A DNA stretch of 64,000 nucleotides from an uncultured Alphaproteobacteria bacterium (GTDB lineage Bacteria; Pseudomonadota; Alphaproteobacteria; HIMB59; GCA-002718135): contig CACEMP010000004.1 in the NCBI GenBank assembly GCA_902560675.1, forward strand, positions 2,678 to 66,677. The letters are read 5' to 3'. The position numbers were made by a program, and so were the translations under genes. The notes beneath the pieces are model-generated. The model did no database searches. It worked only from the letters and a program-made list of their open reading frames with translations, and was not told the origin of the DNA. This document shows, piece after piece, positions 19,284 through 29,568 of the stretch; position 1 is the first letter of the stretch; every line of letters begins with the position of its first letter.

Positions 19284-20875
19284 TGTCTCAATACACTGAT
19301 TATATAATAATTGGTGCTGGTTCAGCTGGTTGTGTACTAGCAAATAGACTATCATCTCATTCAAAAAATAATGTAACTTTATTTGAAGCTGGCCCTTCTA
19401 ATAATACTTGGAAAGTTGATATGCCAAGTGCATTACTTTATGTAATGCATGACCCAAAATATAATTGGAAATATTATACTGAGCCTGAACCTTATTTAAA
19501 TAACAGATCTTTATATTGTCCTAGAGGTAAAATGTTAGGCGGTTGTTCCTCTCATAATGGAATGGTTTTTGCTAGAGGTCATAAAGAGGATTTTGATAGA
19601 TGGGAGTCTTATGGTTTAGATCAATGGAGCTATAATAAAGTTTTACCGTATTATAAAAAACTAGAAACATGGTCTGGAAAAAATAGCCTAAGAGGTAAAA
19701 ACGGCCCATTAAAAGTAAATAAATCTCAAATAGATAAAAAGTTTCCATTATTTAATGCAGTTCTTAAAGCTGCAAAAGAAGCTGGCTATAATATCTTTGA
19801 TGATTCAAATAGTACTAATAATGAAGGATTTGGTACATTTGATGTAACAATTGATAAAGGAGTTCGGCAAAGTATACCAAAAGCTTATTTAGATCCTATA
19901 AAGAACAGAAAAAATCTTCAAATAATAAAAAAAACATATGTAAAAAAAATAATTTTTAAAGACAAAGTTGCAATAGGAATAGAATATGTAAAAAATAATA
20001 AGACACATTATTTTTATGCAAATAAAGAAGTAATACTTAGTGCAGGCTCAATTAATTCTCCAAAAATACTGCAACTCTCAGGAATAGGTAATGCTGCACA
20101 TCTTAAAGATTTTGGAATTCCCATAATTAATGATTTAAAAGGAGTTGGTGAAAATCTTCAAGATCATTTAGAAATATATATTCAATATAAATCAAAGAAA
20201 AAAGAAACATTATATGATTTATCAACCAATTTTATTTCTCAAGGTATTGAAGGAAGCAAATGGTTTACTTTCAAGAAAGGTAAATTAGCTCACTCACACT
20301 TAGAGTTAGGTGGTTTTGTAAAAACAAATAAAAATTACTCACATCCAAATTTACAATTTCATTTTTTTCCATCATTAGTAATCAATCATGGTTTAACAAA
20401 TCCTGAATTTGATGCTTTTCAATTTCACGCATGTCCTAACAGGCCAAAGAGTAGGGGGTTTGTTAAAATAAAGTCAAATGATTTTAATATATCACCTCAA
20501 ATCCAATTTAATTACTTACAAAATCAAGAGGACTTAATTCAAATGAGAGACAGTGTGAAAATTGCAAAAAATATTTGCTCTCAGAAATCACTCTTAGATT
20601 ATGTTGATTACGAAATAAGGCCTGGAATTGATATTAAATCTAATGAAGAATTAGACGAAATTATTAGAAACACTGCTGAGTCGGCATATCACCCCTCTTG
20701 TACTAACAAAATGGGTACAGATCATTATTCAGTTGTTGATCAAAAAACAAAAGTACACGGCATTGAAAATTTAAGAATTATTGATGCATCAATTATGCCT
20801 GATATTGTTAGTGCCAATTTAAATGCTAGTGTAGTAATGATCGCAGAGAGAGCCGCTGATTTTTTGATAAATTAA
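19283..20875 (+). CDS. GMC-family FAD oxidoreductase (choline dehydrogenase-like), second paralogue
   Basis: 530 aa with DYIIIGAGSAGCVLANRLS, GKMLGGCSSHNGMVF and C-terminal HPSCTNKMG...IIDASIMP. The GTG start overlaps the SDR stop by 1 nt. Confidence 0.85.
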   Translation: MSQYTDYIIIGAGSAGCVLANRLSSHSKNNVTLFEAGPSNNTWKVDMPSALLYVMHDPKYNWKYYTEPEPYLNNRSLYCPRGKMLGGCSSHNGMVFARGHKEDFDRWESYGLDQWSYNKVLPYYKKLETWSGKNSLRGKNGPLKVNKSQIDKKFPLFNAVLKAAKEAGYNIFDDSNSTNNEGFGTFDVTIDKGVRQSIPKAYLDPIKNRKNLQIIKKTYVKKIIFKDKVAIGIEYVKNNKTHYFYANKEVILSAGSINSPKILQLSGIGNAAHLKDFGIPIINDLKGVGENLQDHLEIYIQYKSKKKETLYDLSTNFISQGIEGSKWFTFKKGKLAHSHLELGGFVKTNKNYSHPNLQFHFFPSLVINHGLTNPEFDAFQFHACPNRPKSRGFVKIKSNDFNISPQIQFNYLQNQEDLIQMRDSVKIAKNICSQKSLLDYVDYEIRPGIDIKSNEELDEIIRNTAESAYHPSCTNKMGTDHYSVVDQKTKVHGIENLRIIDASIMPDIVSANLNASVVMIAERAADFLIN

Positions 20876-20945
20876 AACAAAAACTTAGACCGTTTCTAGC
20901 CTAAGTATATTGTTGTTATTTATTCTTAAAGTAAGGAAAGTCATA

Positions 20946-20973
20946 TATTTAAGGATGAAATAAACCTTAAATA
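20946..20973. terminator. Hairpin between convergent genes (9-bp perfect stem TATTTAAGG / CCTTAAATA, 10-nt loop); weak terminator candidate
   Basis: Read directly from the sequence. There is no clear U-tract on either strand, so confidence is low. Confidence 0.3.
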
Positions 20974-20984
20974 ATGTCTAAGAA

Positions 20985-21164
20985 TTAGATAGATTTTCTT
21001 CTGAGTGTCCAACCGTATCTTTCACTGTAATAAGCCTCAATTCCTTCAGCTAAATTAAGATCGTAGTTGGAGTCTATAGATCCCTCAAGGACCTTATTCT
21101 CAATTGAAATCTGTTCTAAACCTTCTTTTTGGTTATTGATATTTTCTGTTAATTTACTATTCAT
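20985..21164 (-). CDS. Small hypothetical protein (59 aa), divergent from the ScfR-type regulator
   Basis: My own translation is MNSKLTENINNQKEGLEQISIENKVLEGSIDSNYDLNLAEGIEAYYSERYGWTLRRKSI. The ORF is below the apparent size cutoff of the track. By eye it is distinctly more GC-rich than the flanking non-coding DNA. I recognise no homology. Confidence 0.4.
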   Translation of the reverse strand: MNSKLTENINNQKEGLEQISIENKVLEGSIDSNYDLNLAEGIEAYYSERYGWTLRRKSI

Positions 21165-21165
21165 A

Positions 21166-21184
21166 ATTTACAATATTTACATTT
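21166..21184. promoter_or_regulatory. Left operator candidate: two TGTAAAT-core repeats (minus-strand orientation, 9-nt register) abutting the small-ORF start
   Basis: The plus strand reads ATTTACAATATTTACATTT, which on the minus strand is AAATGTAAATATTGTAAAT immediately followed by T-ATG. Confidence 0.45.
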
Positions 21185-21257
21185 ATATAAAAGTTATAAA
21201 AAAAACTAGTAAATAAGTCATTTCTAATGTAAAGATAATTACTTGATAAAATTTTAA

Positions 21258-21275
21258 TTTGTAAATTTTGTAAAT
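21258..21275. promoter_or_regulatory. Right operator candidate: perfect tandem TTTGTAAAT x2 overlapping the regulator start codon
   Basis: TTTGTAAATTTTGTAAAT spans 21258..21275 and the ATG is at 21274. This mirrors the left site about 75 bp away. The core resembles the TTTGCAAA motif that I recall for RamB/PrpR-family regulators. Confidence 0.45.
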
Positions 21276-22713
21276 GAATATAGAAGCTGATATAAATTTA
21301 GGTCCAAGATTAAAAAAACAAAGGATTAACAAGGGTTTTTCCCAAGCTAAACTATCTAAATCAATCGGAATATCACCAAGTTATTTAAATTTAATAGAAA
21401 GTGGGAAACGTAAAATACCTCTTTCGTTGTTAATAAAAGCTTCCGATGAACTAGATTTATCAATAAAGGACTTCTCTGCAGAATCGAACAAACGACTACT
21501 TTCAGATGTTATGGATGTTTTGAGTAATGAAATTTTTGATGATCTTAAAATTACTAACCATGACACTAGTAATTTTATTGGATCCAATCCGAACATTGCA
21601 AAAGCATTACTAACAATAAATGATTCATTTAAAAGTTATAAAGAAGATATGCAGAATCGTCTTGAAACAATGGATGTTAATTCTGGCACTATAGAAAAAC
21701 CAACAAGACTACCAGTTGAAATAGTTTCAGATATTTTGCAAGAGAATAAAAATTATTTTCATGATCTAGAAATAAGTTCAGAAAAATTAAGAAAAGAAAT
21801 AGGACTTAAAATAGGTCCAAATATTGGATCTGGCTCAAAACTAACACAGTATCTTCAATCAAAGCATGGTATCAAAGTTACAATAGTAACGATTGATCAA
21901 GATGAAAAAATAGTCAAACGCTATGATGAAAAAAGTAAAACTTATTATTTGTCTGAAATGCTAACATACACTTCAAGAAACTTTCATTTAGCTTCTCAAG
22001 TTGCTTATTTAGAAGCTACTGACATTATAAATAAGGTAATCAAAGAAAATAATGTTGAGTCGGAGGAGGTTGTTCCTTTGCTTAAACTTTCATTATTAAA
22101 TTACTATGCAGCCGCATTTATGATGCCTTATGATGATTTTTTAAAAAGTGCAAAACTTCACAGATATGATGTAGAAATTTTAATGCACCATTATGCATGT
22201 AGCTTTGAGCAAGTTACTCATAGACTCACAAATCTACAGAGACCTGGTAATGCTGGTGTTCCATTTCATTTTTTAAAAACAGATATTGCAGGAAATGTTT
22301 CTAAAAGATTTTCTCTTTCAGGAATCCATATTCCCAGGCATGGAGGATCATGTCCAAGATGGAATGTTTACACTGCATTTTTAAATCCAGGAAAGATTCA
22401 CCCACAAATTTCAAAAATGCCTGATGGAAAAGTCTATTTTTGTATAGCAAGAGCATTTGAAAAGGGGATTGAAAAACATGGCATGCCAAAAAGTTTTGTT
22501 TCTATTGGCTTAGGATGTGACATGAAATATGCAAAAGATTTGGTTTATTCTGAAGGAATTGACCTTACAAATAAGAAATTACAAATGCCAATTGGTGTTT
22601 CTTGTAGAATTTGTCCGAGGGTCGAGTGTCAACAAAGAGCATTTCCACCAATCGACAAAGAGTTGAAGCTTGATATCAAGTATAGAGGAACGTCTCCATA
22701 CGTAACGATTTAG
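21274..22713 (+). CDS. XRE-family HTH regulator with DUF955/DUF2083-type C-terminal domains (ScfR / RamB / PrpR short-chain acyl-CoA regulator family)
   Basis: 479 aa with an N-terminal HTH (LGPRLKKQRINKGFSQAKLSKSIGISPSYLNLIESGKR). The C-terminal pattern is AAAFMMPYDDF..RYDVE..SFEQVTHRLTNLQRPGNAGVPFHFLKTDIAGNVSKR..GGSCPRWNV..GLGCD..CRICPRVECQQRAFPP, including a Cys cluster. Confidence 0.8.
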   Translation: MNIEADINLGPRLKKQRINKGFSQAKLSKSIGISPSYLNLIESGKRKIPLSLLIKASDELDLSIKDFSAESNKRLLSDVMDVLSNEIFDDLKITNHDTSNFIGSNPNIAKALLTINDSFKSYKEDMQNRLETMDVNSGTIEKPTRLPVEIVSDILQENKNYFHDLEISSEKLRKEIGLKIGPNIGSGSKLTQYLQSKHGIKVTIVTIDQDEKIVKRYDEKSKTYYLSEMLTYTSRNFHLASQVAYLEATDIINKVIKENNVESEEVVPLLKLSLLNYYAAAFMMPYDDFLKSAKLHRYDVEILMHHYACSFEQVTHRLTNLQRPGNAGVPFHFLKTDIAGNVSKRFSLSGIHIPRHGGSCPRWNVYTAFLNPGKIHPQISKMPDGKVYFCIARAFEKGIEKHGMPKSFVSIGLGCDMKYAKDLVYSEGIDLTNKKLQMPIGVSCRICPRVECQQRAFPPIDKELKLDIKYRGTSPYVTI

Positions 22714-23717
22714 ATCTTTACTAACATTTTCCCTATATTTTTTCCATTAAGTAAATCAATAAATGCTTTAGGAGCATTTTCTAAACCTTCATAAACTGTC
22801 TCTTTAAATTTTATTTTGTTATTTTTTAACCAATCTTTCATATCGGTTTCAAATGGCTCATTATCATTTTCATGATCAAATATTAAAAATCCTTTTATGG
22901 TTAATCTTTTCACAAGCACATGAGCCATATTTTTTAAACCACTTGGGGGTGATGTTACATTCATTTGAGATATTCTGCCACAAATGACAATTCTTCCAAA
23001 GTTTTTCATTCTGAATATTGCAGACTCTAAAAAATCACCACCAACGTTATCAAAATATAAATCAAAACCTTCTGGACATATTTCTTTAAAATACAGAACA
23101 AGATTTTCAACTTTATTATAATTAAATGCGTGATCTACATTGAGTTCATTTTTTAACCACTTAACTTTTTCATCAGAGCCAGTACTTGCATAAACAGTGC
23201 AACCTAAATTTTTAGCAATTTGACATACTGTAGATCCAACACTACCACCAGCTGATGAAACAAGTACGGATTGTCCAGCTTTCAATTTCCCATAATTAAA
23301 TAGACCTATATAAGCTGTTTGTCCTGTCATACCTAATGGACCTAAGTAAGACTGAATAGGTAAATCTGTAGAATGAATTTTTTTTATTTGACCACTATTA
23401 CAAACAAAATTATCTCTCATTCCAAAATTGCTAAAAACAGTATCACCTATTTTAAAATAATCATCATCTGACTCTTGAACTGAACCAATTGCATAACCCT
23501 CCATTTCCTCACCTAATTTAAATGGTGGTTTATAATTTTTTCTCTCTGTCATTCTCGCTCTCATATAAGGATCAACAGAGATCCAAGAATTTAAAACGTG
23601 AATATTATTTTTGTTATTTAATTTAATTTCTTTTGTTTTTATTTCAAAATCATCTTCTGTTGGCAATCCTTGGGGGATATAATTTTTTAAAGCAACATAT
23701 TTACAAGTTTTTGTCAT
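22710..23717 (-). CDS. NADP-dependent medium-chain reductase (zinc-independent MDR, alkenal/enone reductase PTGR1/YncB/CurA-like)
   Basis: 335 aa with the nucleotide-binding motif VSSAGGSVGSTVCQIAK and no Zn-ligand Cys cluster. It overlaps the convergent regulator gene by 4 nt. Confidence 0.75.
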   Translation of the reverse strand: MTKTCKYVALKNYIPQGLPTEDDFEIKTKEIKLNNKNNIHVLNSWISVDPYMRARMTERKNYKPPFKLGEEMEGYAIGSVQESDDDYFKIGDTVFSNFGMRDNFVCNSGQIKKIHSTDLPIQSYLGPLGMTGQTAYIGLFNYGKLKAGQSVLVSSAGGSVGSTVCQIAKNLGCTVYASTGSDEKVKWLKNELNVDHAFNYNKVENLVLYFKEICPEGFDLYFDNVGGDFLESAIFRMKNFGRIVICGRISQMNVTSPPSGLKNMAHVLVKRLTIKGFLIFDHENDNEPFETDMKDWLKNNKIKFKETVYEGLENAPKAFIDLLNGKNIGKMLVKI

Positions 23718-23719
23718 AT

Positions 23720-24649
23720 TTATAACTTATATTTTTTCTTTAATTCAATCAAATCAATTAAAAAGTTATCTCTTATATTACTTAGTTTATTAATAGATAA
23801 TTTTTTTGATTGTATAGCAGTGCCTTTAATTATTTTTTGTTTTAATTCTTTACTTAATTTAGGTGATTTTAATTTTGTCCAAGGAAACTTTAAAGCTGGC
23901 CCAAACTGATCTAACATATGTTTCATACCTAATTCACCACCAGCTAAATGAAATGTCAGAAATGTTCCCATTAAAGCCCAACGCATACCAGGTCCGTAAG
24001 TAATCGCATCATCTAAATCTTTTGTTGTACCATAGCCATCATTAATTATATGCAATCCCTCTCTCCATAATGCTTCTTGCAATCTATCAGATAGAAATCC
24101 CGGTAATTCTTTTTCCACCAACAGAGTTTTCATTTTAATATTTTTATAAAATGTATTTGCTCTCTTAAAATAAATATTACTTGTCTTATTGCCTTTAACT
24201 ATTTCAACTAAAGGCAAAATATAAACAGGATTAAAGGGGTGAGCAATAATAAACCTTTGTGGATTAATACATTCTGATTGCAATTTTGAAGGTAACAATC
24301 CAGAAGAACTTGAAGCTATAATTGATTGTTTTGGCGCAAATTTACTAATATTTTTGATAACTAGTTTTTTTAATTCTAATCTTTCAGGAATATTTTCTTG
24401 AATTAGATCAGAATCCTTAACTGCCTCATCTAAATTATTTGTAATATTAAGATTTTTTAAGTTAATTTTTCTTTTATATAATTTTTGAACAACTGGTTTA
24501 GTTCTAACTATTTCTTTTTTAAGATATTCTATTTGTTTTTTATTTTTATCAAAAGCTGTAACTTTTTTATTGCATGCTAAAAAACGCAATATCCAACCAG
24601 TGCCTATAACGCCAGTTCCTATTACAGAAATATTTTTGATATTTTTCAA
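23720..24649 (-). CDS. 3-hydroxyacyl-CoA dehydrogenase-fold NAD enzyme of the L-carnitine dehydrogenase type
   Basis: 309 aa with VIGTGVIGTGW, SGLLPS, HPFNPVYILPLVEIV, LPGFLSDRLQEALWREGLH and GPGMRWALMGTFLTFHLAGGELGMKHMLDQFGPALKFPWTKL. These match my recollection of LcdH/CDH sequences. It is adjacent to a BKACE. Confidence 0.7.
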   Translation of the reverse strand: MKNIKNISVIGTGVIGTGWILRFLACNKKVTAFDKNKKQIEYLKKEIVRTKPVVQKLYKRKINLKNLNITNNLDEAVKDSDLIQENIPERLELKKLVIKNISKFAPKQSIIASSSSGLLPSKLQSECINPQRFIIAHPFNPVYILPLVEIVKGNKTSNIYFKRANTFYKNIKMKTLLVEKELPGFLSDRLQEALWREGLHIINDGYGTTKDLDDAITYGPGMRWALMGTFLTFHLAGGELGMKHMLDQFGPALKFPWTKLKSPKLSKELKQKIIKGTAIQSKKLSINKLSNIRDNFLIDLIELKKKYKL

Positions 24650-24650
24650 A

Positions 24651-25541
24651 CTAAAAATGTTTTTTTAATTTTAATTTTTCTCTAACTTGTTCTGGATTAA
24701 GTATAGATGATCCTAAGTCTTCAACAATGCATCTAGCTTTTTCAACAAGTTGAGCATTAGAAGCAAAAACACCTTTTTTAAGATAAAGATTGTCTTCTAG
24801 TCCTACTCTTACATTTCCGCCTAAAATCACTGCCTGTGCTGCCATTGGCATTTGTGTTCTTCCAATACCAAATCCAGCCCAGAAACCTTCTTTAGGAACC
24901 ATTTCTGCCATTGCTTTCATTGCGGTTGTTGTAGCAGGTGATCCCCAGGGGATACCAAGGCATATTTGATATAAAGGTGGCCCATCAATTAAACCTTCTT
25001 TATAAAGTTGATTTGCAAACCATAAGTGACCCATTTCAAAAGCTTCCATTTCTGGTTTAACCCCAAGTTCTTGCATTTTTTTTGCTGCAGATCGAAGTTG
25101 CATTGGAGTATGAACGAAAGTCATATTTGAATCACCAAAGTTGAGTGTTCCACAATCTAAAGTACACATTTCAGGGAGCAATTCTTCTACATGCTCCAAC
25201 CTACTTAAAGCGTCAATCATATCTGTATTTGGACCGACAGGATTAAGAGGATCTTTTTCTGTTCCAACTTCAAAATCTCCACCCATTCCTGTAGTAAAGT
25301 TTAGAACTACATCTGTATCTGAAGATCTTATTCGATCTGCAACTTCTTTATAATATTCCAATTTTCTTGATGGTTTTCCATCTGGCTCTCTTACATGAAT
25401 GTGAGCTATTGCAGCCCCCGCCTTTGCTGCTTCAATAGAAGCATCTGCTATTTGTTTTGGTGTTATAGGTAATTCTGGGTGTTTATTCGCTGTATCTCCA
25501 GAGCCAGTAACAGCACAAGAAATTATTACTTCATTATTCAT
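24651..25541 (-). CDS. BKACE-family enzyme (3-keto-5-aminohexanoate cleavage enzyme family, DUF849), probable dehydrocarnitine cleavage enzyme
   Basis: 296 aa with an N-terminal [12 protein letters not shown]...[26 protein letters not shown] typical of the BKACE TIM barrel. It has a 1-nt gap to the carnitine-dehydrogenase-like gene. Confidence 0.75.
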
Positions 25542-25583
25542 TTTTTTAATCTACTAGTATATTTATAATTATAAAAGAAAATT

Positions 25584-26051
25584 ATGAAAATATACTTAAA
25601 TTCTGGAAAAGTTAAAAAAGAATGGACTGATTATAATGGTCACATGAATCTTGCTTTTTATATTCATTTATTTGATGCAGGTTGGGAAGTGTTACTTCAA
25701 AAATTTAATATGGGAGAAGATTCAGCAAAAATAGAAAAGAAAACTACCTTTGCAGTTGAGTCTCATACAACTTATGACAAAGAAGTTAAAGAAGGAGATG
25801 AAGTAGATATAAACTTATTATTTTTAGATAGAGATAAAAAAAGATTAATCTACAAGTTGGAGATGACCCATAAAGAGGAAGGTTATAGAGCTGCAACAAC
25901 AGAAGTATGCTCATTATATGTAGATCTAAATATTAGGAAAGTAGCAGAAATAGAAAAAGAAAAGCAAAGCAGAATAGATAATTTTATTGAAAATAAAAAA
26001 AGTAGTTTTAATCCAGGTAATTTATCCTTAATTCATAAATTAAAAAAATAA
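25584..26051 (+). CDS. 4HBT/YbgC-type hotdog acyl-CoA thioesterase (candidate betainyl-CoA thioesterase)
   Basis: 155 aa with the N-terminal catalytic region EWTDYNGHMNLAFY. It is divergent from the BKACE operon, separated by a 42-nt intergenic region. Confidence 0.65.
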   Translation: MKIYLNSGKVKKEWTDYNGHMNLAFYIHLFDAGWEVLLQKFNMGEDSAKIEKKTTFAVESHTTYDKEVKEGDEVDINLLFLDRDKKRLIYKLEMTHKEEGYRAATTEVCSLYVDLNIRKVAEIEKEKQSRIDNFIENKKSSFNPGNLSLIHKLKK

Positions 26052-26643: not shown

Positions 26644-27627
26644 ATGAAACTAATTCCTGAATGGTATGATCACCAATATTGTCTTATTGCTTGGCCATGC
26701 AATAAAGACCTGTATGGTAAAATAATTAATAAAGCGAGAGATGAAGTTGCTAATGTTATTAACGAAATTGCAAAAACTGAACATGTAATTGTCTTATCAA
26801 ACAAAGAAAACATAAACGAAATTCAAAATAAAACTGATCATAAAAATATAGATATTGTAGAATGTAAATTAGATGATTCTTGGATGCGAGATATAGCACC
26901 AATTTTTTATAATGAAGATCAAAAATTAAAATCAATCAGTTTTGAATTTAATGGTTATGGAAAGTATCCAGATTATTTTAATGATAATAAAATATCAAAA
27001 TTTATTTCAAACTATTTAAATATTCCAACAAAAACATCCGAACTTGTTATTGAGGGAGGGGCAATCACCTATGATGACAAAAAAAATTTATTTAGTACCA
27101 AAAATGTAATATTTAATAAAAATAGAAAACAAAAACATAGTAATGAATATATAATTGAAGAATTAAAATTCTTGTTTGACTTAAATCATATTTTTTTGTT
27201 TGAAAATGGACTAAAGGATGACGATACTGATGGGCATGTAGATAATTTATTATGCCCTATTGGAAAAAATAAATATTTAATAGCTACAACTGACAAATTA
27301 GATCCTAATTATGAAATATTAAAAAAAAACAAAACTGATCTTATTAATTTTTTTAGAAATTCTAATCAGATATTTGATTTAATTGAAATTCCTTTGCCTG
27401 CAAGAAAGACGATTAATAATAAAAATATTATTAGTTCATATATAAATTTTTATTTCAGTAAAAATAAAATTATTCTACCTAAATTTAATGTTGACGAAGA
27501 CAAAGAGGTAAAAATTATTTTTGAAGAATTATTCCCAAATCGAGAAATTATTATGTTGCAAACTGAAAATATTAATTATGGTGGAGGAAATATTCATTGT
27601 ATAACGATGAATGTTCCAAAAGTATGA
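26644..27627 (+). CDS. aguA: Agmatine deiminase
   Basis: 327 aa with DSWMRDIAP, EGGAI, DTDGHVDN, SYINFY and the C-terminal GGGNIHCITMNVP. Confidence 0.85.
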   Translation: MKLIPEWYDHQYCLIAWPCNKDLYGKIINKARDEVANVINEIAKTEHVIVLSNKENINEIQNKTDHKNIDIVECKLDDSWMRDIAPIFYNEDQKLKSISFEFNGYGKYPDYFNDNKISKFISNYLNIPTKTSELVIEGGAITYDDKKNLFSTKNVIFNKNRKQKHSNEYIIEELKFLFDLNHIFLFENGLKDDDTDGHVDNLLCPIGKNKYLIATTDKLDPNYEILKKNKTDLINFFRNSNQIFDLIEIPLPARKTINNKNIISSYINFYFSKNKIILPKFNVDEDKEVKIIFEELFPNREIIMLQTENINYGGGNIHCITMNVPKV

Positions 27628-28481
27628 AAGTAAAAGTAGCAACATCACAATTTAGAGCTGTTAAGGGAGATTTTGATGCTAACTTAAATAAAGCAATTAG
27701 TTTAGTTGAAAAAGCTTCTAAAGAAAATGTTGATATTTTACTTCTGCAAGAATTATTTCAAGGTTATTATTTTTGTTCAACAAAAAATGATAAATTTTTC
27801 AACTTTGCAATTGATTATCCTTCTAATCCAATGTTTGAAAAATTATCTAACATCTGTAAAGAAAAAAAAATTTCATTACCAATTAGTTTTTTTCAAAAGA
27901 AAGAAAATAAGTATTTCAATTCTTTAGTTATGATTGACTCTTTTGGTAAAATAAGTGACGTATATAATAAATCACATATCCCTGAAGGACCTGGATATAA
28001 TGAGAAATATTATTTTGAAAAAGGTAATACGGGCTTTATGGTTTTTGATACACCAAAAGCAAAAGTTGGCTGTGCAATTTGTTGGGATCAGTGGTTCCCT
28101 GAATGTGCAAGAATATTAACATTGAAGGGTGCAGATATAATTTTATATCCATCGGCAATTGGTTCTGAACCACACATCCCTGAATTAGATTCAAAGGATC
28201 ATTGGATTAATACAATGATTGGACATGCTGCTGCAAATCAAATTCCCATAATAGCTTCAAATAGAATAGGGAAGGAGACCGAAGCTAATATTGAATTAAA
28301 TTTTTATGGTAATTCATTTATTTTGGATCATCTTGGAAATGTAATAAATCAGATGAATGACAAGGATGAGGGCATAATAACTGCGACTTTAGATTTGTTA
28401 ATTTCAAGAGAATATAGAAAATCATGGGGTAACTTTAGAGATAGAAGGCCTGATCTATATAAAAAAATTCTCGATTTTTAA
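27624..28481 (+). CDS. aguB: N-carbamoylputrescine amidase (CN-hydrolase/nitrilase superfamily)
   Basis: I place the start at MKVKVATSQF (ATGA overlap with the aguA stop) rather than at the track's 27597. The CN-hydrolase catalytic triad context is LLQELF, NKSHIP and CAICWDQWFPE. Confidence 0.85.
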   Translation: MKVKVATSQFRAVKGDFDANLNKAISLVEKASKENVDILLLQELFQGYYFCSTKNDKFFNFAIDYPSNPMFEKLSNICKEKKISLPISFFQKKENKYFNSLVMIDSFGKISDVYNKSHIPEGPGYNEKYYFEKGNTGFMVFDTPKAKVGCAICWDQWFPECARILTLKGADIILYPSAIGSEPHIPELDSKDHWINTMIGHAAANQIPIIASNRIGKETEANIELNFYGNSFILDHLGNVINQMNDKDEGIITATLDLLISREYRKSWGNFRDRRPDLYKKILDF

Positions 28482-28521
28482 TTTATTTTATTTAATGTAT
28501 TTTATATTTAGGAGGGGAATA

Positions 28522-29568
28522 ATGCTTAAGTATTTTATATCTCTATTAGTTTTAATTTCTTTTTCGGCTCAGGCTAAAGAAGAATTATTTATTTACAATT
28601 GGTCTGACTATATTGCTGAAGATACAATTGAAAATTTTGAAAATGAATTTGGCATTGATGTAACTTATGATGTTTTCGATTCAAATGAAGTTCTTGAAGC
28701 TAAACTTTTAGCAGGCGGTTCCGGCTATGATATTGTTGTGCCTTCAGGTTCTTTCTTAGAAAACCAAATCAAGGCTGGTGTTTTTCAAAAACTTGACAAA
28801 TCAGAATTATCAAATCTAGGAAACCTAGATCCTGAAGTTCTATCTAAGATAGATGCACATGATCCAGGAGGTCAATATTCAGTAAACTATATGTATGGTA
28901 CCACTGGTATTGGTTATAATACTGATAAGGTTGATGAAGATGAAGTTACTAGTTGGAGTGTTTTATTTGATCCAGCTATAGCGTCCAAATATGAAGATTG
29001 CGGTATAGCAATGTTAGATGCACCATCTGAAGTAATGGAAATAGCCCTAAAATATGTAGGTAAAGATCCTAATACTGAAGATGAGAATGATTATAAGGCA
29101 GCTCTTTCAATGTTAGAGGAAATTAGACCTTTCATTAGGTACTTTGATTCCTCTCAATACATTGATGATCTTGCTAATGGTGAAATTTGTCTAGCTATGG
29201 GATGGTCAGGTGATGTTTTTATTGCTGCTTACGAAGAAATAGAACCAGTTTGGTATTCTATTCCTTCAGAGGGAACTGTAATTTGGTTTGATATGATGGC
29301 AATTCCAACTGACGCAAAAAATGTTTTAAACGCTCATAAGTTTATAAATTATATTTTGAGACCTGAAGTTGCTGCAGATATCACTAACTATGTTTGGTAT
29401 TCTAATCCAAACAAAGCAGCAAATGAGCTAGTTGATCCAGAAATTTTAGGAGATCCAGCTATTTATCCAGATGAAGCAACTTTAAGTATGCTTTTTGCTG
29501 ATACCGCTGACTCGCCTAAAAAAGCACAATTATCAACTAAATATTTTAATAAATTTAAATCAAATTAA
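28522..29568 (+). CDS. potF: Polyamine (putrescine/spermidine) ABC transporter substrate-binding protein
   Basis: I chose the start at MLKYFISLLVLISFSAQA (signal peptide), preceded by AGGAGGGG. The PotD/PotF pattern is IYNWSDYI...MYGTTGIGYN. The SBP-ATPase-permease-permease order matches potFGHI. Confidence 0.8.
   Translation: MLKYFISLLVLISFSAQAKEELFIYNWSDYIAEDTIENFENEFGIDVTYDVFDSNEVLEAKLLAGGSGYDIVVPSGSFLENQIKAGVFQKLDKSELSNLGNLDPEVLSKIDAHDPGGQYSVNYMYGTTGIGYNTDKVDEDEVTSWSVLFDPAIASKYEDCGIAMLDAPSEVMEIALKYVGKDPNTEDENDYKAALSMLEEIRPFIRYFDSSQYIDDLANGEICLAMGWSGDVFIAAYEEIEPVWYSIPSEGTVIWFDMMAIPTDAKNVLNAHKFINYILRPEVAADITNYVWYSNPNKAANELVDPEILGDPAIYPDEATLSMLFADTADSPKKAQLSTKYFNKFKSN

Follow-up and report, generated by a model that had tools for sequence, protein, structure and literature searches.

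Paired TGTAAA boxes as putative operators between an ScfR-family regulator gene and a conserved small protein gene in uncultured Alphaproteobacteria

Introduction

Do short repeats that stand between a transcription regulator gene and a divergent small open reading frame serve as operators of that regulator, and is the small open reading frame itself a gene? The question is raised by a 64-kb stretch of DNA from an uncultured alphaproteobacterium (64,000 nucleotides, hereafter the window), in which copies of a TGTAAAT-containing repeat lie at both ends of one spacer. To our knowledge, SAR11 genomes possess very few transcription factors and almost none with a defined binding site. The repeats were first noticed from the letters of the sequence alone, without database searches (the sequence-only reading).

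The ScfR family offers a precedent for such an arrangement. PrpR of Mycobacterium tuberculosis binds a 17-bp site, TTTGCAAA-N1-TTTGCgAA, whereas the sites of RamB contain TTTGC(A/G)AA (PMC6765138). More generally, it is common for ScfR sites to be built of two near-identical boxes (PMC10370305). The family motif that the sequence-only reading had given for PrpR and RamB matches these published sites (PMC6765138).

Layout of the spacer and its repeats

The window has a GC content of 28-34%. The small open reading frame (sORF-A) and the regulator gene are separated by a spacer of 109 bp, which contains both tandem pairs of the repeat. The features of the locus are the following:

20883..20906, minus strand: terminator-like hairpin, a 9-bp stem followed by the T-run TTTTGTTTTA; 0.1 expected in shuffles
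20985..21164, minus strand: sORF-A, a small protein gene of 59 aa with the conserved C-terminal AYYSERYGWTLRR
21166..21183, minus strand: left putative operator pair, AATGTAAAT ATTGTAAAT, with TTTACA cores at 21167-21172 and 21176-21181
21199..21209, no strand assigned: A-run and CTAG block AAAAAAACTAG, invariant in close orthologues
21228..21233, plus strand: middle (fifth) TGTAAA box; after it comes the conserved block GATAATTACTT, in which TTACTT (21239-21244) is invariant
21258..21275, plus strand: right putative operator pair, TTTGTAAAT TTTGTAAAT, with cores at 21260-21265 and 21269-21274
21274..22713, plus strand: ScfR-family (PrpR/RamB-like) transcription regulator of 479 aa, here called type A

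The tandem of TTTGTAAAT that had been reported over the regulator start can be read directly in the sequence, with copies at 21258-21266 and 21267-21275, the second of which overlaps the regulator ATG (21274-21276). Because an in-frame TAA (21271-21273) directly precedes this ATG and there is no alternative start ahead of the helix-turn-helix domain, the start codon of the regulator is fixed. Two reverse-complement copies, ATTTACAAT (21166-21174) and ATTTACATT (21175-21183), lie beside the start of sORF-A (CAT at 21162-21164, minus strand), and this left pair ends 2 nt from it. The pair is thus present as described, but it stops at 21183, one base less than the 21184 that had been given. Likewise, each gene is preceded by the repeats in its own orientation, as claimed, but the register to the two ATGs is not equal; the junctions are TGTAA/ATG (overlapping) for the regulator and TGTAAATT/ATG for sORF-A, a difference of 3 nt.

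In terms of 8-bp boxes, the right pair is TTTGTAAA-T-TTTGTAAA (21258-21274), an arrangement of 8+1+8, and the left pair has the same 9-nt register. The boxes are short and AT-rich, a property that was counted against reading them as operators. All four boxes of the sequence-only reading are there, but its count was incomplete, as a fifth TGTAAA lies at 21228-21233. The conserved blocks AAAAAAACTAG and TTACTT had also been missed.

Rarity of the boxes and search for further sites

The sequence-only reading had held the repeats to be improbable by chance because the heptamer TGTAAAT should be rare at this base composition. That reason fails, as the window, at 29% GC, contains 26 matches to the heptamer against 29.0 expected. 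The improbability itself stands for the tandem: TGTAAA-N3-TGTAAA is seen twice against 0.03 expected, and none of 100 shuffles reached two. No exact tandem was found outside the homologous spacer in 580 kb of type A loci, and all exact tandems among the fetched loci sit in spacers between a regulator and a small open reading frame, so that such tandems are not common in the background.

Further sites were sought across the intergenic DNA of the 64-kb window, using the 17-mer with up to three mismatches and the core tandem with up to one mismatch, and none was found beyond the sORF-A/regulator spacer. The boxes are absent from the promoters of the BKACE-3HCDH-ADH operon, the SDR-GMC genes and the ABC transporter of the window, and the scan of its 64 kb yielded no additional regulon member.

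The small protein gene sORF-A

The small open reading frame had been put forward as an unannotated gene. All 66 sequences compared keep it intact, with a length of exactly 59 codons, variable sites distributed 20/12/50 by codon position and a pN/pS of 0.09, and both alternative frames contain stops in every one of the 66. Judged by these patterns of substitution, sORF-A is a real gene under purifying selection, which upholds the earlier proposal. The word unannotated needs qualifying, given that several Pelagibacteraceae records list a hypothetical protein. Matches comprise 237 protein clusters in a large protein database, and neither Pfam nor NCBIfam returned a match.

An exhaustive HMMER search reached members of sORF-A down to 37% identity, and all that is common to them is the C-terminal AYYSERYGWTL(R/K)(R/K); the window protein carries the peptide AYYSERYGWTLR. 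In the AlphaFold model the N-terminus is disordered and a beta-hairpin is predicted with confidence at the C-terminus, and a Foldseek comparison of this model with the PDB gave no match with an E-value below 1. The 47-aa conserved peptide of the 'Pelagibacter, resolved' preprint was considered as a possible identity of sORF-A and rejected; its context is UDG, histidine phosphatase and thioesterase.

The terminator-like hairpin follows the stop codon of sORF-A at a distance of about 80 nt, between sORF-A and a convergent GMC oxidoreductase gene. In the lineage of the window, sORF-A is therefore likely to be monocistronic.

The regulator

The gene on the other side of the spacer had been assigned to an ScfR-type regulator, and its domains and structural relatives agree with this. 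Pfam places an XRE-type helix-turn-helix at the N-terminus (HTH_3, residues 13-66, E 4e-12), a Peptidase_M78-like (IrrE/M78-like) domain at residues 196-319 and an ScfRs domain (PF09856) at residues 321-476 (E 2.9e-62). Residues 67-476 align to the structure of M. tuberculosis PrpR (PDB 6cz6) with an E-value of 5.4e-76. The [4Fe-4S] ligands of PrpR are a C-X2-C-X4-C motif plus one further cysteine in a GAF-like domain (PMC6765138), and all four cysteines are conserved, in CRICPRVEC and GGSCPRW of the window regulator versus CKICNRTSC and GGSCPLW of PrpR.

The window contains this one ScfR gene only. Against the NCBIfam equivalog for RamB (NF038139), its product scores 417 bits, which is below the cut-off of 700; its orthologue in the related locus L071 scores 421 bits, and paralogues linked to isocitrate lyase (ICL) score 370-395 bits. 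By the NCBIfam criterion, and as far as its sequence can tell, the window regulator is a member of the ScfR family and not a RamB orthologue.

Conservation and fixed geometry of the boxes

A close set of 65 loci, with regulators 90-99% identical, was drawn from single-cell or metagenome-assembled genomes labelled as uncultured Alphaproteobacteria or Pelagibacteraceae, and 55 distinct spacers from these loci were aligned with MAFFT. The labels of these genomes, which carry the closest relatives of the regulator gene, place the window in SAR11. Invariant positions account for 34 of 42 in the boxes and 21 of 69 elsewhere (Fisher p = 2e-7, with the caution that these are related genomes and not independent samples). 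Positions 21259-21276 are invariant in all 55 spacers, and TTGTAAATTTTGTAAATG does not vary among the 65 close loci. The left pair occurs in the close loci as two sequence variants, CATAATTTACAATATTTACA and CATATTTACAGATTTTACA, and its TTTACA cores and 9-nt register are retained in 63 of 65 SAG loci and in distant lineages. The bases between the elements vary freely, with the exception of three further conserved islands, namely the middle TGTAAA, TTACTT (21239-21244) and AAAAAAACTAG (21199-21209). The last of these is retained in L066 and absent from more distant lineages; one of the two genes may use it as part of its promoter.

Since the genomes of the close set are near relatives, distant loci were sought by means of sORF-A. 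Members of 37-55% identity stand back to back with an orthologous ScfR gene in L066, L067, L069, L070, L074-L076, L077 and L079, while the upstream DNA of L073 (P0141) was too short to judge this adjacency. Eight lineages were then compared: the window, three variants among the close loci, L066, L074, L077 and L071. Their spacers are otherwise unalignable, and identity falls to 37% for sORF-A and to about 50-70% for the regulator. All eight nevertheless have TGTAAA-N3-TGTAAA on the regulator side, either overlapping the ATG or up to 3 nt away from it (3 nt in L077, TGTAAAtttATG), and a mirror-image pair on the sORF-A side. Two distances are shared by all eight as well: 93-94 bp between the first cores of the left and right pairs, and exactly 32 bp from the middle TGTAAA to the right pair downstream of it. 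In the L071 lineage a Shine-Dalgarno sequence intervenes between the boxes and sORF-A, the ATG of which is 15 nt further off, and the distance between the pairs is still 94 bp. The repeats are thus present, with fixed geometry, at all orthologous loci examined.

The constraint thus acts on the geometry from box to box (about nine and about three helical turns) and not on the distance to the start codons. This constant spacing of the boxes despite shifting ATGs favours a DNA-bound protein complex over a translational or purely promoter role. It also bears on the idea that the repeats are functionless products of chance or of replication slippage in AT-rich intergenic DNA. A single heptamer is indeed as common as expected and duplication by slippage is easy, but the excess of tandems over expectation, their invariance where the flanks vary, the retention of the geometry across unalignable spacers and the recurrence of the boxes at a paralogous locus leave this idea with a negligible likelihood.

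Promoter and RNA readings of the repeats

A sigma-70 consensus scan found no credible promoter for the regulator or for sORF-A. Two sequences could act as -10 boxes for the regulator. TAAATT at 21262-21267, 12 to 7 nt upstream of the regulator ATG, fits TAnnnT and could be the -10 box of a leaderless mRNA; GATAAT at 21234-21239 could be the -10 box instead, and the right pair would then fall within a 28-nt leader. Either candidate would be compatible with repression.

The same observations allow the TGTAAAT repeats to be read as core promoters, with TAAAT(T) at 7-12 nt before each ATG as the -10 element of leaderless or very short-leader mRNAs. The fit of TAAATT to TAnnnT, the lack of any other promoter-like site in the scan and the position of the left boxes in L071, just upstream of the Shine-Dalgarno sequence, are in keeping with this. 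A promoter, however, would have no need of a duplicated box, an extra box at 32 bp or a fixed 93-94 bp between pairs, TGTAAAT is not enriched upstream of the other genes of the window, and the 8+1+8 match to ScfR sites would have to be a coincidence. This makes promoter function a decidedly unlikely sole explanation, and it would be compatible with operators if these overlap the -10 elements.

At the RNA level, the UGUAAAU repeats might form a 5'-UTR element, bound by an RNA-binding protein or by the ribosome, that controls translation of both genes, and the window does present them in the sense orientation immediately before both start codons. We regard this as very improbable, given that the regulator-side pair is often antisense to the regulator gene at the paralogous (type B) loci described below, that the middle box and the constant distance between pairs are features of DNA geometry, and that the distance to the ATG varies, from overlap to 3 nt on the regulator side and to 15 nt on the side of the small open reading frame. 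There was also no Rfam match; a scan of 20700-21500 returned one sub-threshold miRNA match only, which was taken as chance.

The isocitrate lyase link and a paralogous system

One lineage (L070, L071 and L080-L082) has a 65-aa sORF-A and, on the same strand about 100 bp beyond it, the gene for ICL. The locus L071, on an 89-kb contig, has the same flanking synteny as the window: a 4HBT thioesterase gene and BKACE-3HCDH-ADH_N_2 genes, the latter convergent on the regulator, on one side, and the GMC oxidoreductase and SDR genes on the other. Between sORF-A and the GMC gene L071 carries about 7 kb that is absent from the window, with genes for ICL, an FAD oxidase, a hydrolase, a luciferase-like protein, a CoA-binding protein, ECH and an aldo-keto reductase. 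Neither the window nor any of the 65 close loci contains ICL. A type A regulator adjoining ICL or malate synthase, the arrangement taken as the sign of glyoxylate-shunt control, was seen only in the lineage of L071 and L080-L082 and not in the window.

This distribution bears on the reading of sORF-A as a mere leader peptide of ICL, which was rejected as a general explanation: ICL lies downstream in one lineage only, and in the window sORF-A precedes a hairpin and a convergent gene, yet has the low pN/pS given above. Both sORF-A and its boxes are kept under strong selection even without an enzyme gene downstream.

A metagenome scan with the ICL protein was used to gather ICL loci, and in most of the AT-rich ones a second ScfR regulator (type B), 37-49% identical to that of the window, is divergent from ICL. 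In about 41 AT-rich SAR11-type loci, the type B spacers measure 103-113 bp and contain TGTAAA/TTTACA boxes in the 9-nt register, with one pair abutting the regulator ATG and another abutting the ATG of a second small open reading frame (sORF-B). The distance between pairs is 73-74 bp (about seven helical turns) in 17 of the 18 loci with two exact tandems, and 92 bp in the remaining one (L091). In two type B loci, L150 and L152, the canonical TTTGCAAA stands beside the boxes. Type B loci differ in how the pairs are oriented with respect to the genes, and so mirror symmetry itself may not matter.

The product of sORF-B has 42-58 aa with the core G-x-Y-x-(R/K/N)-(D/E)-D-x-x-D-W-G-S-x-G-M-N and no Pfam match. 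The reading frame ends 25-80 bp before ICL, has a pN/pS of about 0.25 and, from this arrangement, appears to head the ICL transcription unit in most SAR11. Homology of sORF-A and sORF-B was considered and rejected (hhalign probability 0.2). Two paralogous ScfR regulators are thus each found back to back with a different, unrelated conserved small open reading frame, and in both types this is the first gene behind the box array.

Given that type A and type B use the same core, the adjacent regulator may not be the only or the main protein to bind the boxes. The recognition-helix segment IS(P/S/A)SYLNL(I/L)ESG(K/R)R hardly differs between the two types of regulator, which fits a common box for both paralogues and raises the possibility of crosstalk. 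The boxes of the window could then be bound by another protein, be it a type B, ICL-linked paralogue, if the genome has one, or an unrelated factor. Besides the near-identical helices, the core TGTAAA-N3-TGTAAA does not distinguish type A from type B loci, and crosstalk of PrpR and RamB through common sites has been proposed in M. tuberculosis, which is a precedent (PMC6765138). Conversely, the boxes were found beside an ScfR gene in all lineages examined, with a separate set for each paralogue, just one ScfR gene lies in the window, and ICL is present in only 99 of 135 complete Pelagibacter genomes (preprint 10.64898/2026.04.03.716430). About a quarter of these genomes thus lack ICL, presumably together with its regulator, and boxes of the window type are still invariant. 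On balance, binding by another protein in place of the adjacent regulator seems unlikely.

Proposed mechanism

The reading preferred here is that the TGTAAA boxes are operators of the adjacent ScfR-family regulator. The sequence-only reading had likewise taken them for likely autoregulatory operators, and this view is supported by all of its points that could be checked, apart from the corrections given above. They are non-random, conserved and of fixed geometry, they have a precedent in the family and they recur at paralogous loci; on these grounds we infer binding by the regulator with a probability of about 0.75.

The 109-bp spacer would then be a divergent control region for the regulator gene and sORF-A, with each TGTAAA box as the AT-rich equivalent of the family TTTGCAAA box. 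The regulator is expected to sense acyl-CoA through its bound Fe-S cluster. PrpR is a D2 tetramer with four helix-turn-helix domains (PMC6765138), and an oligomeric regulator of this kind could occupy both pairs at once. Less confidently than binding itself, it is proposed that the bound tetramer probably loops the spacer, and that occupancy holds down transcription of the regulator gene and of sORF-A. Repression is preferred to activation on account of the position of the boxes, over or next to the start codons, although this is a guess. A change of CoA or acyl-CoA ligand would alter the oligomeric state of the regulator or its binding; CoA esters are known to alter the oligomeric state of Paracoccus RamB (PMC10370305). 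In the lineage of the window, the local targets would be the regulator gene and sORF-A only, whereas in the related lineage the same control region would also drive the ICL gene directly downstream of sORF-A.

Comparison with known systems

PrpR (Rv1129c) of M. tuberculosis resembles the window regulator in its architecture and in the conserved Fe-S cysteines, although the solved structure of PrpR is without the helix-turn-helix, so that the comparison excludes the details of DNA recognition. The sites are also alike, each with two 8-bp near-palindromic boxes 1 bp apart, in a spacer that separates the regulator gene from a divergent target. The PrpR site lies between prpR and prpD, and is also found upstream of icl1 in mycobacteria (PMC6765138). 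From TTTGCAAA to TTTGTAAA there is one central C-to-T change per box. Unlike PrpR, the window has two mirror-image pairs and a fifth box at fixed helical-turn distances, its boxes abut or overlap both start codons, and its divergent target encodes a 59-aa protein in place of prpDC.

RamB, which regulates acetate metabolism and the glyoxylate shunt in Corynebacterium glutamicum and M. tuberculosis, is another member of the family and is linked to ICL; the window has no ICL gene, and the link is found only in the related lineage and for the type B paralogue. RamB negatively autoregulates its own gene. Closer in taxonomy, RamB of Paracoccus denitrificans (class 2) and PccR of Rhodobacter sphaeroides are, like the window regulator, ScfR regulators of Alphaproteobacteria. 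Paracoccus RamB is an activator whose boxes are separated by 18 bp and lie 82 bp ahead of the target (PMC10370305). The boxes of the window are instead 1 bp apart, at start codons and in two pairs, and this difference from the placement seen for an activator suggests repression.

CI and Cro of the lambda type offer an analogy only. They too are XRE-type helix-turn-helix proteins with an array of quasi-palindromic operators between divergent genes, including their own, and cooperative binding or looping between operator sets is likewise plausible. In contrast to these phage repressors, the window regulator is of a large, metabolite-sensing tetramer type and has no mobile-element context.

Significance

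Literature searches returned no paper linking Pelagibacter with RamB or ScfR, and none on an operator of the form TTTGTAAA. The AT-shifted ScfR box, the architecture of two pairs plus one at start codons and a regulator clade outside the RamB equivalog would accordingly be new, and the pairing of ScfR paralogues with microproteins is, as far as we found, undescribed. The GC-containing TTTGCAAA of actinobacterial and rhodobacterial ScfR regulators would have become, at 29% GC, the all-AT-flanked TTTGTAAA with the 8+1+8 arrangement kept.

The TGTAAA-N3-TGTAAA pairs at helical-turn spacings provide a testable candidate operator for two ScfR paralogues, in a motif that can be used for regulon scans of complete Pelagibacter genomes. 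One of these paralogues adjoins isocitrate lyase, the entry point of the glyoxylate shunt, which is variable and has drawn ecological discussion.

Two conserved microproteins are proposed as the primary outputs of both ScfR circuits. A more tentative suggestion, and one that we consider possible but doubtful, is that the products of sORF-A and sORF-B, instead of being leader peptides or bystanders, are functional partners of the ScfR circuit, which might modulate the regulator or else the enzymes of acyl-CoA metabolism or the glyoxylate shunt. If this is true, the microproteins would add an unrecognised protein layer to the control of carbon flux in the most abundant heterotroph of the ocean.

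Constraint Within the Regulator Spacer

The TGTAAA boxes between the ScfR-family regulator gene and the divergent 59-aa small gene (sORF-A) are predicted operators of the regulator, and their two pairs differ in conservation across the 65 close SAG loci. One left-pair core carries a single-base change in each of two loci (TTTGACA in L013 and TTTACT in L027), whereas no core of the right pair, which overlaps the regulator ATG, is changed in any of the 65, so that the regulator-side pair seems to be under tighter constraint than the left pair. The operator model leaves two further blocks of the spacer unaccounted for, both invariant among close orthologues:

21199-21209, AAAAAAACTAG block
21239-21244, TTACTT block

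These blocks may be promoter elements, although a sigma-70 consensus scan returned no match.

Box Spellings and a Second Small ORF Family at Isocitrate Lyase Loci

In one lineage of isocitrate lyase-linked loci, a canonical TTTGCAAA box immediately follows a TTTACAaaaTTTACA pair (L150:2079-2229; L152), so that SAR11-type DNA contains the box in both spellings. Among loci L083-L159, another family of conserved small ORFs (sORF-B, 42-58 aa) occurs upstream of isocitrate lyase; in 43 AT-rich loci, sORF-B separates the isocitrate lyase gene from that of a paralogous ScfR regulator. Examples of sORF-B are:

L090:2302-2454
L101:2286-2450
L130:2251-2412

The family shares the core motif GxYx(R/K/N)(D/E)Dxx DWGSxGMN and has a pN/pS of ~0.25. 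A Pfam search with sORF-B gave no match, and its comparison with sORF-A revealed no detectable relation.

Gene Neighbourhood of the Regulator

On the other side of the regulator lies an operon whose synteny with the regulator is kept in three compared loci (L071, L072, and L077):

22710-26051, convergent on the regulator, BKACE / 3-hydroxyacyl-CoA-dehydrogenase-like / ADH_N_2 oxidoreductase operon

A 4HBT thioesterase gene is divergent from this operon at a distance of 42 bp, and together they resemble carnitine or beta-keto-acid cleavage pathways consuming acetyl-CoA. No TGTAAA boxes were found in the operon promoter region. Separately, genes for an agmatine deiminase-like protein (PAD_porph), a carbon-nitrogen hydrolase, and a polyamine-type solute-binding protein follow one another at 26644-29568 and resemble a cluster for the utilisation of putrescine/agmatine.

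Beside sORF-A, 20875-20985 was compared with L071:7900-15000, on an 89-kb contig from a related lineage; ~7 kb that separates sORF-A from the GMC oxidoreductase gene in L071 is missing from the window. In L071 this segment encodes isocitrate lyase, an FAD-linked oxidase, a hydrolase, a luciferase-like protein, a CoA-binding protein, an enoyl-CoA hydratase, and an aldo-keto reductase; L073 is intermediate in gene content. The interval from sORF-A to the GMC oxidoreductase gene is a spot of variable content adjoining a fixed regulator/sORF pair.
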